A program made the position numbers and the translations under genes. Positions 12,990 to 17,938 of a stretch of DNA of 64,000 nucleotides are shown in pieces (positions within the stretch are counted from its first letter, which is position 1; every line of letters begins with the position of its first letter). The stretch is from Desulfovibrionaceae bacterium (lineage in GTDB: Bacteria; Desulfobacterota; Desulfovibrionia; Desulfovibrionales; Desulfovibrionaceae): positions 125,552 to 189,551 of the forward strand of contig JACCQO010000004.1 in assembly GCA_015709205.1 (NCBI GenBank), given 5' to 3'. The notes beneath the pieces are model-generated. The model saw nothing but the letters and a program-made list of their open reading frames with translations. It was not told the DNA's origin and searched no databases.

Positions 12990-13018
12990 TTGACTTGCGT
13001 CGCGCAATGGTATTTATT
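12990..13018 (+). promoter_or_regulatory. Candidate sigma70-type promoter of the cytochrome c3 gene
   Basis: TTGACT at 12990-12995, followed after 15-17 nt by a TATTTATT block (13011-18), about 45 nt upstream of the TTG start. Confidence 0.35.
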
Positions 13019-13063
13019 CTAGGGAAAGCGGCCTTCCCACGGCCGCTGCAAAGGAGGTCCACC

Positions 13064-13486
13064 TTGAAAGCGTATTCCCGTTCCTTCGCGGCCGCCGCGT
13101 GCGCAGCCGCCCTGTTGCTGGCCGGCATGCTGCTGGCATCGGCCCCGGCCTCGGCCATGGACGCTCCGGCCGCCCCCCTGAAACTGGCCTATTTCCCCAA
13201 CAAGGTCGTGATGTACCCGCATGCGGCCCACGCCAAGCTCGAGTGCAAGCAGTGCCACCACAAGCTGGACGCCGCGGGCAATCCCCAGAAGTGTAGCGCC
13301 AAGGGCTGCCACGACGTGTTCGACAAAAAGGACAAGTCCGAGAAGTCCTTCTACCGCATCGTGCACGACACCAAGTTGGAGACGATGCAGTCCTGCCTGA
13401 TGTGCCACAAGGCCGAGGGCGCCAAGCTGGACAAGGCCGCAAAGAAGGCCCTGACCGGCTGCGCCAAGTCCCGCTGCCATCCGTAG
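13064..13486 (+). CDS. cycA: Periplasmic tetraheme cytochrome c3 (type I)
   Basis: There are four heme motifs in the classical order CKQCH, CSAKGCH, CLMCH, CAKSRCH, plus a signal peptide (AAAACAAALLLAGMLLASAPASA). The probable start is TTG 13064, which has AAGGAGG 6 nt upstream. The track ATG at 12995 would add a non-signal-like N-terminus. Confidence 0.92.
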   Translation: MKAYSRSFAAAACAAALLLAGMLLASAPASAMDAPAAPLKLAYFPNKVVMYPHAAHAKLECKQCHHKLDAAGNPQKCSAKGCHDVFDKKDKSEKSFYRIVHDTKLETMQSCLMCHKAEGAKLDKAAKKALTGCAKSRCHP

Positions 13487-13675: not shown

Positions 13676-16600
13676 CTACTCCGCGTCGGCCAGCACCTCG
13701 ACGCGCTCCAGGTATTCGTTGTAGTGCGCCAGGTAAAAACTCAAGGCCTTGGAGAAGTTGCGGCCCACCAGGCCGTCCAGAAAGAGCTGGGTGATCTCCC
13801 GTTCGCGGCGCAGCACGTGCTGGGACAGGAGCAGGGCCCTGCGCTCCTCCATGGTCATGGCCCGGAAGCGGCGGCGGAACACGTCGCGCGCGCGCGGCTG
13901 GTACATCCAGAAGTACATCAGATCCAGGGCGTTGACGATGATGATGCGCAGCAGGTCGCGGTGCTCGTACTTGAGCGTCTGGGTGATCTGGTGCGAGGAT
14001 TCCAGCAGGGAGAGCACGTCCTCCTGGGGAAAGAGCATCTCCAGCCGGGCGTAGGTGTCGAAGACGCGCTCGAGCTTGTTGGCGTAGTCCAGGGCGCGAC
14101 GGCGCAGATAGGCGGCGCGGTCGGCGAGGCCCTCGATGATCCCGGCCACGCAGTCCGAGGCCAGCTTGGAGATGATCGCCGCCCACTTCTGGAGCACCAC
14201 GTCCGCCGCCGCCGCGCCCGCGGCCATGCCCACGCCCACCAGGGCCAGCCCGGCCAGGTAGTTGAACCCCACGGCCAGGGGCACGGAGAGCACACAGCGA
14301 AATATGTTGGCCAGGGCCGCGGAGCGCGGCAGCCCCCGGAAGAGGTTGTGCGTGGTGATGTAGGCCCCGTTGACCAGCCCCATGCCCAAATACACGGCCA
14401 GGGGATGCGTGCCCACTGTCATGCCCAGGACGTCTTCCATGAAGAGCGTCTTGACCAGATAATCCAGCAGCGGCACGGAGATGCCCGTGTACATCAGCGA
14501 ATCCGCCAGCCGGTTCCAGCTCACGTAGCTGTTCCAGCGCACCAGGGCCGGACGCCGCAGCCCGCCGCACCCGAGCACCGCCTGGATGATGTTGCGCACG
14601 CCGGTGATGGCGAACCAGATCAGCGCCCCGCCGTAGGCCAGCAGCCACCACTGCTTGGTCAGCAGGAAGGTCAGGAACGCGGGAATGAACCCGAGCAGGA
14701 CCTTCAGCCCGATCTTCAGCCCGGTCTTGAGGTAGCGCGGCGACCACGCGCCCTCGTGGTCCCTGGGCCGCGCGCACGCGCCCTCCCGGCGCGCCCCGCC
14801 CAGGGTGAAAAGGTTGCCCCGGCCGGGCGCGGCGGGCTCCACCCGGCGCAGCACCCACTCCTCCTGCCCGCGATAGGTCAGCCGCCCCAGGCCGGGCACA
14901 AAGCGCGCCGCGCGCAGCAGCAGCCCCGGGAACGCGGACGCGCATTCGCGCGGCACCCGGGTGACGCGGCGGAACGCGGTCATGAACAGGGGCAGGGCGC
15001 GGTGCATGGACGAGGGATCGGACAGGGTGCGCTGCGCGCGCCAGGAGAGCGAGGGCCGCAGCACCAGCCCCATGCCGTGCAGCCGCCCGGACTGGCCCGT
15101 GGAATCCGTGCCGATGGAGGAGCGCAGCGGCTTGGCCGTATAGAAGGAATGCAGGGTCGGGATGTCGAAGAGGATGTCCACGAGCTTGTCGCAACGGGCG
15201 CGCGCCTCCAGCCTTGCGCGGTTCCCGCCGCCCCCGGAGTCCCCGCCGCCCCCGCAGCCCTCGGCGTCGGCGGCCTCCAGCTCCTGGATGATCCCCGCGA
15301 TGTGCCGCTTGAGGCGCACCACGTTGTTTGAATTGATGGCCGCCTGCAGTTCCAGGATGGCGTCGTTGTCCGGGCAGCGGCCCAGGATGTGGTCCTTGAG
15401 GTTGAAGATCTCCAGGTGCGTGACCATGCCACGGCAGTCGTAGAGGATCTCCAGCACGTCGGCCGTGGTCAGGCCGTACAGGTTCAGGGTGATGCGCATG
15501 CGCGGATGGATGGCGCGCAGACGGCGCATGAGCGCGTCCGGCGGCAGGAAGAGCAGGTCCGGGACCTCGGCCGGGGAGAGCGCGGCGGACGTTGCGGGCG
15601 CATCCGACGCATCCGGCGCGTCCGGCACACCCGGCGCGGCCGGAGCGCTCGGGGGGCGCATGGGGTCGGGCAGGTCCGGGTTGGCCGCCGGACGCAGCCA
15701 AGCCTCCATGACCGCGTCCGCATCGAGGTCCGCCAGCAGCCGGGCGGCACGCGCCGCCTCGTCCGAATCCGGATCCCGCGTCGCGAGCTCCTCCACGCGC
15801 GCGGCCAGCAGCGGCCGCAGCCGCTCGCACACGTAGGTGCCCAGGTGGCGCAAGGAGGCCTGGCCCGGGCCCACGAACTCCCGGAAGCGGGTTTCGTCCA
15901 GGGGTTCGAACTCCACGCCGTAGGCCGCCCGCACCGCGGCCAGGTGGCGTCCGTTGAAGGCCTGGAAGACGCGCATGACGTGGCGGTCCATGTAGGCGGA
16001 TATCTCGCGCCCCTGGTCCATGAGCGCGCGCACCCCGGGCTCCGCGAGGAAATGCTGGAAGGACTCCACTTCCGTGAGCCCGCGCGGCACCCAGATGACC
16101 TTGACCGGCTTGCCCCGCAGCGCGGCCAGGTATTCGATGCCCACGGTCACCTTGATGTCCATGATCGCGGCGGCCTCCAGCAGTTCGCGCGCGGCCTCCG
16201 GGGCGATGAAGTTGTAGTAGACCACCGTGAGCCGCCGGATGCCCTTGATCCAGGCGTCCATGATCAGGTGCGTGGGCGACTTGCGGCCCTTGGTGTTGGC
16301 GTCGTGCACGTGGTCGTCGAAGGCCACCTGGTTCCAGGCCTCGGGCATCTCCACGAGGTGGTAGGCCTTGAGCTGGGCGCGCACCAGGCGCGGGTTGCCC
16401 GAGGCCACGGCGCGGAAGTCGTGGGCCAGCTCCAGCTGGCGCTGGTAGTCGCCCTGGCTGCGCAGCAGCTCCTTCATCATCTCCAGGAGGATGCGCGCCG
16501 TGTTTTTGCGCAGCGGGCTCATGGAGGTGTAGAGCACCTCGTCGCGCAGGGTGCTCAGGGCGTGCAGCCGCTCCTGGGGCGAGCCCTTTTCCAGGGTGCC

Positions 16601-16918
16601 GAGCAGGTGGGCCAGGGCGTAGGCGATGCGCAGCCCCTGCGGGGCGGCCATCTCCTTGATGCCGTGGGGGTGGAGGTAGGGCGCGAGCAGCCGCTTGTAG
16701 GCCGCGTAGTTCTTGCGCTCGGCGATGTCGCCCACGATACGGATGAGCTCGTGGTCGCGCTCGTCGAAAAAGGCGCGGGGCACGTCGTGCGGGTCCAGGG
16801 CGGGGTGCTTGTCGGGCCGGGCCTCGCCGGGACGGCGAGGCGAGCCGATCTCGCGGACCTCGCCGTCCCGGCGCGAGCCGACCTGAAGGGCGTCGTCTTC
16901 GTGCGCCGGGCCGCTCAT
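13676..16918 (-). CDS. Large (1080 aa) conserved-looking hypothetical protein: about 700-aa cytoplasmic region, multi-TM block, C-terminal helical domain
   Basis: The frame is clean and has normal composition. The overlapping track ORF 13551..16940 is a frame shadow. The hydrophobic block spans about aa 720-900 (LKVLLGFIPAFLTFLLTKQWWLLAYGGALIWFAITGV...). I recognise no catalytic motif. It lies downstream of a radical-SAM gene on the same strand. Confidence 0.8.
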   Translation of the reverse strand: MSGPAHEDDALQVGSRRDGEVREIGSPRRPGEARPDKHPALDPHDVPRAFFDERDHELIRIVGDIAERKNYAAYKRLLAPYLHPHGIKEMAAPQGLRIAYALAHLLGTLEKGSPQERLHALSTLRDEVLYTSMSPLRKNTARILLEMMKELLRSQGDYQRQLELAHDFRAVASGNPRLVRAQLKAYHLVEMPEAWNQVAFDDHVHDANTKGRKSPTHLIMDAWIKGIRRLTVVYYNFIAPEAARELLEAAAIMDIKVTVGIEYLAALRGKPVKVIWVPRGLTEVESFQHFLAEPGVRALMDQGREISAYMDRHVMRVFQAFNGRHLAAVRAAYGVEFEPLDETRFREFVGPGQASLRHLGTYVCERLRPLLAARVEELATRDPDSDEAARAARLLADLDADAVMEAWLRPAANPDLPDPMRPPSAPAAPGVPDAPDASDAPATSAALSPAEVPDLLFLPPDALMRRLRAIHPRMRITLNLYGLTTADVLEILYDCRGMVTHLEIFNLKDHILGRCPDNDAILELQAAINSNNVVRLKRHIAGIIQELEAADAEGCGGGGDSGGGGNRARLEARARCDKLVDILFDIPTLHSFYTAKPLRSSIGTDSTGQSGRLHGMGLVLRPSLSWRAQRTLSDPSSMHRALPLFMTAFRRVTRVPRECASAFPGLLLRAARFVPGLGRLTYRGQEEWVLRRVEPAAPGRGNLFTLGGARREGACARPRDHEGAWSPRYLKTGLKIGLKVLLGFIPAFLTFLLTKQWWLLAYGGALIWFAITGVRNIIQAVLGCGGLRRPALVRWNSYVSWNRLADSLMYTGISVPLLDYLVKTLFMEDVLGMTVGTHPLAVYLGMGLVNGAYITTHNLFRGLPRSAALANIFRCVLSVPLAVGFNYLAGLALVGVGMAAGAAAADVVLQKWAAIISKLASDCVAGIIEGLADRAAYLRRRALDYANKLERVFDTYARLEMLFPQEDVLSLLESSHQITQTLKYEHRDLLRIIIVNALDLMYFWMYQPRARDVFRRRFRAMTMEERRALLLSQHVLRREREITQLFLDGLVGRNFSKALSFYLAHYNEYLERVEVLADAE

Positions 16919-17068
16919 GCCCGCACCTCGCTGTAACCAAATCGTAACATCATAGTCCCTCTTTTCACAATATCAGCCCGGCCGCAAGAATAAAAACGTT
17001 CGTTATTTCGGCAAAATAGAACGAAAGGCCCCGTTGCGGAGCCCGTGCTGGAAAACGAACGGGAACGT

Positions 17069-17938
17069 TCAAAGGCCGCGCAGGGACTCGGGTTTCAGGG
17101 CCACGCGGCCGTCCAGGGCCCGGGCGATGTGCGCCAGGGCCGCCGCCTTGTCGCGCGGCAGGCGCAGGCGCATGGGCAGGTAGTTGGAGGCGTGGTCGGC
17201 CAGGAACAGGCCGCGCTCCAGGTGGATGTGTTCCAGCAGTTCGGCCAGTTCGGCGAGCAGCCCGGCGGGCGTGGGCAGGGTGAAGGCGCCCTCGTCGATC
17301 CAGCGCGCCAGGGGCGTACCCGGAATGGGCGTGAGCGCCAGGGCCGCGGTCTGCTCCGGCCGCATCCGCGTGAGCAGCTCGCCCGTGGCCCGGGCGTGGG
17401 CCAGGGAATCCTCCACGCCGCCCGCGCCCAGGAGCACGGTGACGCTCAGCCGCATCCCGGCGGCGCGGACCCGCGCGGCCTGGGCCAGGATGCATTCGGG
17501 ATCGCCCTTCTTGTTCATGCGCTCGAGCGTGGGCGCGTGGCCGGACTCCAGCCCCATGTACACGAGCCCCACCCCCAGCTCGCGCAGCCGGGCCAGCTCG
17601 GCGTCGGTCTTCATGGCCACGGCCTTGGCGTTGGCGTAGGAGGCCACGCGCGCCACGCGCGGCAGCCGCTCGCGGATGCGCAGGAGCAGTTCCTCCAGCC
17701 GGGCCTGGGGCATGACCAGGGCGTCCCCGTCGCACAGGAAGAGCCGCCGGTTGCCGCCCATGTGCCGTGCCGCGAATTCGATGTCCGCGAACACGGTGGC
17801 GCGGTCCTTGATGGCGAAGCGCACCCTTTGGTAGGCCCCGCAGAAGGCGCACTTGTTGTGCGAGCAGCCCACCGTGGCCTGCAGCAGGATGCTGTCCGCC
17901 TCGCTGGGCGGGCGGATGATGTCGCCGACGTAGTCCAT
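17069..17938 (-). CDS. Radical SAM protein (cluster motif with CX4CX2C spacing)
   Basis: Start ATG 17938 (RBS GGAGGG 3 nt upstream); the track ORF extends to 18106. The motif VGCSHNKCAFCGAY lies at nt 17840-17866. TIM-barrel-like segments follow (RLFLCDGDALV, VYMGLESG). Confidence 0.85.
   Translation of the reverse strand: MDYVGDIIRPPSEADSILLQATVGCSHNKCAFCGAYQRVRFAIKDRATVFADIEFAARHMGGNRRLFLCDGDALVMPQARLEELLLRIRERLPRVARVASYANAKAVAMKTDAELARLRELGVGLVYMGLESGHAPTLERMNKKGDPECILAQAARVRAAGMRLSVTVLLGAGGVEDSLAHARATGELLTRMRPEQTAALALTPIPGTPLARWIDEGAFTLPTPAGLLAELAELLEHIHLERGLFLADHASNYLPMRLRLPRDKAAALAHIARALDGRVALKPESLRGL

Follow-up and report, generated by a model that had tools for sequence, protein, structure and literature searches.

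Introduction

In a genome of the family Desulfovibrionaceae, two co-oriented genes encode a radical S-adenosylmethionine (radical-SAM) protein of 289 amino acids and, beside it, a membrane protein of 1080 amino acids, and the locus raises the question of whether the two belong to one system. It lies in a stretch of 64,000 nucleotides (contig JACCQO010000004.1, positions 125,552 to 189,551 of the forward strand), referred to here as the window, in whose numbering all coordinates are given. An original prediction, made from the DNA letters, had suggested that the pair could be a membrane-associated modification or lipid system, and had likened two segments of the large protein to the duplicated halves of a phospholipase D (PLD) fold. 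In this study, gene neighbourhoods, family alignments and predicted structures were analyzed for both proteins. The best joint explanation, which we consider probable, is that the large gene is solitary: the two genes are unrelated neighbours, one encoding an Elp3-like radical-SAM protein and the other a protein that combines a reduced PHP barrel with a membrane domain. The locus comprises the following elements.

13676..16918, minus strand: 1080-aa membrane protein of an unnamed family, P0001 (open reading frame)
16919..17068, minus strand: intergenic gap, 150 nt (sequence and GC content)
17069..17938, minus strand: stand-alone Elp3-like radical-SAM protein, 289 aa, P0002 (open reading frame, translation, PF04055, PDB profile match)

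The large open reading frame (ORF) starts from an ATG at 16918, and the assembly's own gene call for this protein gives 1040 aa (P0003); residues 1–40 show no conservation and are disordered in the AlphaFold2 (AF2) model. The gap had been described as AT-rich; its GC content is 51%, against 70% window-wide.

Conservation of the gene pair

Conservation of the gene neighbourhood had been set beforehand as a test by which a functional pair could be refuted; it was run, and the pair is not conserved. Homologues of the large protein with 44–52% identity were taken from 80 loci in species-representative genomes, with up to 8 kb of flanking DNA on each side, and a tblastn search with P0002 found the radical-SAM gene at none of them (0/80). 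Whole-genome searches of 41 related genomes found P0002 orthologues in 20 and P0001 homologues in 30; both genes are present in 15 genomes (the window's own counted), the large protein alone in 15 and the radical-SAM protein alone in five. In the 14 other genomes with both, the genes are without exception on different contigs or 200–420 kb apart, as in G013 (940,639 and 1,358,384) and G009 (822,926 and 1,029,474), and their presence and absence are uncorrelated across the 41 genomes (odds ratio 1.2, p = 1). As for the closest homologues, that of the radical-SAM protein (65% identity) is encoded on the opposite strand inside a riboflavin operon, and that of the large protein (56% identity) adjoins GGDEF and PilZ genes.

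Furthermore, all-against-all clustering of the ORFs around the 80 large-protein loci and 12 radical-SAM loci revealed no conserved partner beyond a single clade. The 136 ORFs that directly flank the large gene gave 127 different Pfam families, and Radical_SAM is absent from the 25 commonest families listed among these immediate neighbours; the commonest are DUF4136, in 11 loci that all belong to one group including Desulfosarcina-labelled loci, and AsmA/YhdP, in four. Neither protein matched a defence-system model (PADLOC). The co-oriented adjacency of two genes is by itself no more than chance expectation. Because synteny is missing from the 80 loci, from the 14 genomes with both genes and from the closest homologues, the pair hypothesis fails, and the radical-SAM protein and the large membrane protein are probably the products of unrelated genes that are chance neighbours in this genome.

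Family and architecture of the large protein

The lack of a named family for the large protein, which had already been suspected, was confirmed by searches of Pfam, NCBIfam and the PDB, the last by both phmmer and the family profile, all of which were blank. A sub-threshold match to MS_channel_TM1 was spurious, and a retroviral Env match (E = 0.34) was discarded. A total of 2386 homologues were found, and an exhaustive profile search gave at least 680 clusters at 50% identity, with 310 at E ≤ 1e-30. Full-length members all have about 920–1170 residues, homologues are annotated solely as 'hypothetical protein' in every source, and over 56 sequences from several orders the mean column identity is 52%, with well over 100 invariant positions. 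The large protein therefore has to be regarded as a member of a widespread unnamed family with a single fixed architecture.

The AF2 model (pLDDT 81.9, pTM 0.78) bears out the layout that had been read from the sequence, with a soluble part of ~715 aa, a membrane block at ~732–930 and a helical tail. Structure prediction, which had been proposed as a check on this protein, also found a PHP barrel and left the membrane block with no match in the PDB. The predicted domains are as follows; no separate structural match was obtained for the N-terminal helical domain.

16349..16771, minus strand: N-terminal all-helical domain, residues ~50–190 (AF2 helices H53–185; many invariant residues)
15059..16324, minus strand: divergent TrpH/RNase AM-type PHP (β/α)7 barrel with two large helical insertions, residues ~199–620, as assigned by Foldseek and hhalign
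14804..15001, minus strand: β-sheet linker, residues ~640–705 (AF2 strands E644–656, E682–695 and E703–705)
14129..14725, minus strand: membrane domain, probably of six helices, residues ~732–930 (AF2 helices, hydropathy, Lys + Arg loop counts)
13679..14128, minus strand: cytoplasmic C-terminal helical bundle, residues ~931–1080 (AF2 of residues 718–1080)

Assignment of the PHP barrel

In Foldseek searches of the PDB with the predicted structure, the top nine matches were all PHP domains. The best were 3e0f/3o0f (E = 3e-4, probability 1.00, TMt 0.60); further matches were Vibrio cholerae RNase AM (9etk), Cv1693 (2yb1), the RNase AM PHP domain (7ug9) and 3e38, and the PHP domains of PolC and Pol III were also included. 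The BFVD viral library returned PHP/DnaE only. Thirty TrpH/RNase AM-like proteins of this and related genomes were then aligned, and an hhalign comparison of family residues 190–720 with that alignment gave a probability of 87.8% (E = 3.4e-6); residues 200–363 were aligned to TrpH 4–140, from β1 to β4 and into the TrpH-type helical insertion, with HxH paired with HxH and Glu with Glu. On the evidence of the modelled fold and this alignment, residues ~199–620 are assigned to a divergent TrpH/RNase AM-type PHP barrel.

The two strand–helix–strand segments on which the comparison with PLD had been based are real in the AF2 model, in which they belong to the PHP-type (β/α)7 barrel identified by Foldseek and hhalign. 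Segment 1 (E229–235/H240–252/E256–267) is β2-α2-β3 of the barrel, and segment 2 (E474–479/H485–494/E501–506) is β5-α5-β6.

The large protein shares this (β/α)7 barrel, by Foldseek, with TrpH/YciV (RNase AM) and Cv1693-type proteins (9etk, 7ug9, 2yb1, 3e0f), together with the HxH motif; the β3 Glu is common to about 60% of its members, and the final-strand Asp is matched by eye only. However, it has about 1000 residues rather than about 290, and it adds an N-terminal helical domain, bigger insertions, a β linker, a six-helix membrane domain and a helical tail, with ligands 3, 4, 6 and 9 replaced and PF02811 blank. Membership of the TrpH/RNase AM subfamily itself was ruled out by the membrane architecture of about 1000 aa and by the missing ligands.

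Residues of the putative metal site

Metal-binding PHP domains use nine residues (H, H, D/H, H, E, H, C/H, D/N and H) to bind three metals, and in variant PHP domains positions 4, 6 and 9 are those most often lost, frequently to basic residues (PMC3666897). The corresponding positions of the large protein were mapped from the hhalign alignment and column counts. For the C-terminal half of the barrel, the alternative hhalign alignments were co-linear but insignificant, so that ligands 7–9 were mapped by eye, with positions 8 and 9 placed by eye only. The motif equivalent to the HxH of PHP β1 and the state of each ligand are listed here.

16301..16318, minus strand: motif D201-D-H203-V-H205-D206, PHP β1 HxH equivalent (aligned to TrpH DLHTHS)
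Ligands 1 and 2, canonical H and H: H203 and H205, invariant
Ligand 3, canonical D/H: K210 (Lys in 43/56)
Ligand 4, canonical H: mixture of His, Tyr and Phe at 237, beside invariant Y235
Ligand 5, canonical E: E262 in 34/56, Ser in 21/56
Ligand 6, canonical H: column 272 (Val, Ile or Leu) in the hhalign pairing, with basic Arg or Lys at 273
Ligand 7, canonical C/H: not assignable
Ligand 8, canonical D/N: D605, invariant among the 56 sequences, nearly so in the wider set (GSDFH matched by eye to G(S/T)DSTG)
Ligand 9, canonical H: T607, by eye

The canonical nine-residue metal set of the PHP superfamily is thus incomplete in the large protein. What is retained is strictly conserved: D201, H203, H205 and D206 are invariant in the 56 sequences and in 21 more diverse ones. 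Further barrel residues are invariant or near-invariant, namely D201, D206, G211, R212, K213, D221, E503 and N506; among them, D201, D206, K213, D221 and E503 are invariant, and R212 and N506 are near-invariant. These extra conserved residues lie near the C-terminal ends of the barrel strands and probably surround the same face as the metal site.

In amidohydrolase and PHP sites, the first metal is bound by ligands 1, 2, 5 and 8, the second by ligands 5, 6 and 7, and the third by ligands 3, 4 and 9. By this assignment, the large protein would have lost its third metal site completely and most of the second, and would keep most of the first.

A distant subfamily of 920–970 aa (P0369, P0372 and P0378–P0388) has 22–26% identity to the window protein. 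It keeps D201, H203, H205, D206, K213, D221, E503, R861, R874 and K918, residues that, as judged from the alignment, define the minimal conserved core of the superfamily.

A PHP domain with comparable losses is that of E. coli Pol III α (2hnh), a cited example of a catalytically dead domain that has lost ligands (PMC3666897). There too, the barrel lacks several of the nine ligands, including those at positions 4 and 9, and basic residues substitute at some ligand positions. However, the E. coli domain is part of a replicase rather than a membrane protein, and it has lost position 1, whereas positions 1 and 2 (HxH) are strictly invariant in the large protein.

Several observations weigh against a PHP barrel with a working site. 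PF02811 has no match in the large protein even at E ≤ 0.1, although it does find six other PHP proteins in this genome, and the family profile has no sequence match in the PDB; because both of these searches were blank, PHP homology rests on the fold and one profile–profile match (88%), which itself covers the N-terminal half of the barrel only. In addition, 21/56 members have Ser in place of the bridging Glu (ligand 5), and the nine-ligand set is short of four or five residues, as in catalytically dead PHP domains.

The membrane domain

The AF2 model places membrane helices at residues 732–896, followed by a 60-residue helix (901–962) that leads into the helical bundle. Lys and Arg together number four in the loop 784–803, two in 861–865 and seven after 930, and there are none in 829–838 or 896–904. 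Taken with hydropathy and the AF2 model, this distribution points to what are probably six membrane helices with both termini cytoplasmic, the sixth being the start of the 901–962 helix, in which K918 is invariant and D922 and E929 are almost invariant. Invariance or near-invariance is also seen at R775, N776, Q779, D806, H857, N858, R861 and R874 of the membrane domain.

When folded alone, residues 718–1080 gave a model with pLDDT 86.2, for which no meaningful fold match was found in the PDB; the best was WzxE (E = 0.5, probability 0.12). As modelled, the membrane domain and helical tail have no solved structural relative.

Proposed role of the large protein

We lean towards a membrane-anchored phosphoesterase or phospho-ligand sensor. 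In the mechanism that we propose, the trinuclear PHP site would have shrunk to a one-metal or two-metal site, ringed by the invariant D201, D206, K213, D221 and E503 and the near-invariant R212 and N506. On the cytoplasmic side of the inner membrane, the protein would bind or hydrolyze a phosphorylated ligand, in a manner coupled to the membrane domain. The missing synteny, the fold, the profile homology and the pattern in which ligands are kept and lost are results of the analysis; the catalytic competence, the substrate and the coupling are inferred.

Between the two roles, a membrane-anchored one- or two-metal phosphoesterase is plausible at slightly less than an even chance; it would attack either a small phosphorylated molecule or a lipid-linked substrate on the inner side of the membrane. 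It is less probable, and can be put forward only tentatively, that the barrel would bind a phospho-ligand without catalysing a reaction and would control a membrane domain that functions in transport or as a channel.

The strongest competing explanation is that the PHP-like barrel is catalytically dead and serves as a ligand-sensing or structural module, regulating a membrane domain that would be the real effector (a channel, a transporter or an intramembrane enzyme). The loss of ligands 3, 4, 6 and 9 is what such an account expects, as are the basic replacements, Lys at 210 and Arg or Lys at 273 next to the hhalign column for ligand 6, and the Ser that replaces ligand 5 in 21/56 members; the membrane domain, moreover, has its own dense invariant charges, including R861, R874 and K918. 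However, even at 22–26% identity there is no variation at D201, H203, H205, D206, K213, D221 and E503, and hardly any at D605. Because these core residues are invariant even in the distant subfamily, the barrel looks more catalytic than scaffold, and a dead barrel is judged possible but rather unlikely.

Returning to a barrel with a reduced metal site, a bolder form of the proposal may be stated, to which we attach a low probability. The large protein could represent a new class of inner-membrane machine, in which a one- or two-metal PHP barrel would process a phosphorylated lipid, a lipid-linked intermediate or a nucleotide signal. It would be mechanically coupled, via the β linker and the long sixth membrane helix, to a six-helix domain of a fold unseen in solved structures, with a conserved envelope or signalling role across Desulfobacterota and scattered other phyla. 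A full-text literature search for membrane-bound PHP proteins in Desulfovibrio turned up no paper on Desulfovibrio.

The intergenic gap and other explanations of the locus

Three features were found in the gap.

17026..17044, minus strand: terminator-like hairpin with T-rich tail, 25 nt past the radical-SAM stop codon (consensus scan)
16949..16976, minus strand: sigma-70-like promoter match CTGATA-16-TATGAT, 5' of the large gene (consensus scan, 9/12 positions)
16924..16929, minus strand: ribosome-binding site GAGGTG, 5 nt ahead of the ATG at 16918 (direct sequence reading)

An independent promoter and terminator within the gap, together with uncorrelated expression, had been named in the original prediction as a possible refutation of the pair. 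Sites of both types are seen, but they are consensus matches only, and the promoter match is no evidence of function. The hairpin forms an 8-bp stem on folding; because its z-score is just −0.86, it is merely suggestive as a real terminator, and this lack of statistical distinction counts against the separation of the two genes.

These features bear on a second explanation, a lineage-specific operon in which the radical-SAM protein and the large protein act jointly, for example with the former modifying a lipid or cofactor that is handled by the latter. The two genes have the same orientation and are 150 nt apart; the gene upstream of them is divergent and the gene downstream convergent, and the two could therefore form one unit. 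Nevertheless, the missing synteny described above and the absence of co-variation in presence and absence both oppose a joint function, as do the terminator-like and promoter-like sites in the gap and the large gene's own ribosome-binding site, and such an operon is considered very improbable.

A duplicated PLD-fold phosphodiesterase or transphosphatidylase without its HKD motifs can be dismissed almost entirely, since it was suggested by just the visual impression of two similar segments, which are β-α-β units of one barrel, whereas the absence of an HKD motif, correctly noted at the outset, holds for both the sequence and the alignment, and the Foldseek matches contain no PLD-family structure and have PHP proteins at the top ranks.

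The radical-SAM protein

Translation and a match to PF04055 substantiate the 289-aa radical-SAM protein and its unusual cluster motif.

17840..17866, minus strand: CX4CX2C [4Fe-4S] cluster motif C25-SHNK-C30-AF-C33 (translation)

The motif is embedded in GCSHNKCAFCG, residues 24–34 (C25-x4-C30-x2-C33). PF04055 is the sole Pfam domain (E = 2.6e-14, 54.2 bits against a cut-off of 29.5), and no NCBIfam model came near its cut-off; membership of the radical SAM superfamily follows from the model cut-off that was passed and the three invariant Cys residues. Among 8000 candidates scored, 7878 homologues had E ≤ 0.001. The 120 best listed are nearly all of 284–300 aa, most of exactly 289, with 55–65% identity, and all names given to them are generic, such as 'radical SAM protein'. 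C25, H27, C30, F32 and C33 are invariant across 38 homologues, and CX4CX2C is therefore a true family trait; it would hold the SAM-binding [4Fe-4S] cluster.

The original prediction had linked this spacing to archaeal Elp3-type enzymes, and the link to Elp3 is upheld: the best PDB match of the family profile is the Elp3 radical-SAM domain (6iad, E = 8.5e-11), with weaker matches to 9ccb, NocN and OxsB. Elp3 (6iad, 6ia8, 5l7j) has the motif CPHGKCIFC, with the same spacing and a common C-x-H-x-K-C-x-F-C pattern. However, the radical-SAM protein lacks the C-terminal KAT/GNAT acetyltransferase domain, PF04055 being all that was found; its 289 aa amount to roughly 60–65% of the matched Elp3 chains (446–518 aa), and strong alignment is restricted to its residues 111–228. 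It was therefore ruled out as Elp3, the tRNA U34 carboxymethylation enzyme, as the acetyl-CoA domain is missing and the similarity covers the radical-SAM core only.

Class B radical-SAM enzymes (OxsB, PhpK, NocN) show weak core similarity, and TIGR04479 matches with E = 5e-8, far below its cut-off. A class B cobalamin-dependent enzyme was ruled out in turn: there is no Pfam match for a B12-binding domain, and just 24 residues precede the cluster motif, which starts at residue 25, leaving no N-terminal B12-binding domain. The CX4CX2C variant is already documented, as it is carried by OxsB (PMC9204698) and by a whole megacluster in RadicalSAM.org (PMC9477430). The radical-SAM protein is a new, stand-alone member of the radical-SAM superfamily, with a core closest to those of Elp3 and class B enzymes.

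The gene of its closest homologue (L141, 6001–6870) is inserted between ribBA and ribE-ribD. This placement in a riboflavin operon did not recur in 12 related loci.

Further observations on the large-protein family and the window

The sole recurrent neighbour seen for the large gene is a DUF4136 lipoprotein gene, which lies 50–260 nt upstream and co-oriented in 11 loci of the group L037–L064, several of them labelled Desulfosarcina. The AsmA/YhdP neighbours in four loci are a weak hint of the cell envelope.

The window's own genome has a single copy of the large protein, and some relatives have two full-length paralogues (G009:C1:1029474-1032458 and 2858919-2861903; G011, on C55 and C183). One homologue (G040:C1:1408235-1411306) is part of an open reading frame of 2027 aa, roughly double the normal length, which may be a fusion with another protein. 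Another, with 37% identity (G001:C44:25756-28764), contains one in-frame TGA; pseudogenization, a sequencing error and codon recoding are all conceivable.

Two lineage-specific inserts are located within the PHP insertions of P0001: a Pro/Ala/Asp-rich one beginning PDPMRPPSAPAAPGVPDAPDASDAP (residues 416–447, window ~15578–15673) and a Gly-rich one, GCGGGGDSGGGGN (residues 557–570, window ~15209–15250). Both are of low complexity and have lower model confidence, and the whole-genome matches of several relatives split at the Pro/Ala/Asp-rich insert.

An ORF of 163 aa at 12995–13486 (plus strand), convergent with the large gene, begins with what resembles a signal peptide and contains four haem-binding motifs (CKQCH, CSAKGCH, CLMCH and CAKSRCH). 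Judged by these motifs, its product looks like a tetrahaem cytochrome c3.

Conclusions

The proposed radical-SAM/membrane-protein system is not a conserved unit, and nobody needs to chase it. The radical-SAM protein is one more stand-alone CX4CX2C family close to Elp3. The large protein can now be assigned as a genuine uncharacterized family, with a catalytic-looking core that belongs to the PHP superfamily in a new architectural variant. The family is strongly conserved, with about 50% identity across several orders and a presence in 30 of the 41 related genomes, and it has no Pfam or NCBIfam model. Its TrpH-like PHP barrel, with a specific and coherent loss of ligands, provides the first testable handle on the large protein, whose membrane domain in turn stands out for having no relative among solved structures. 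A new family definition would be well justified, and the family merits characterization in a tractable sulfate reducer.

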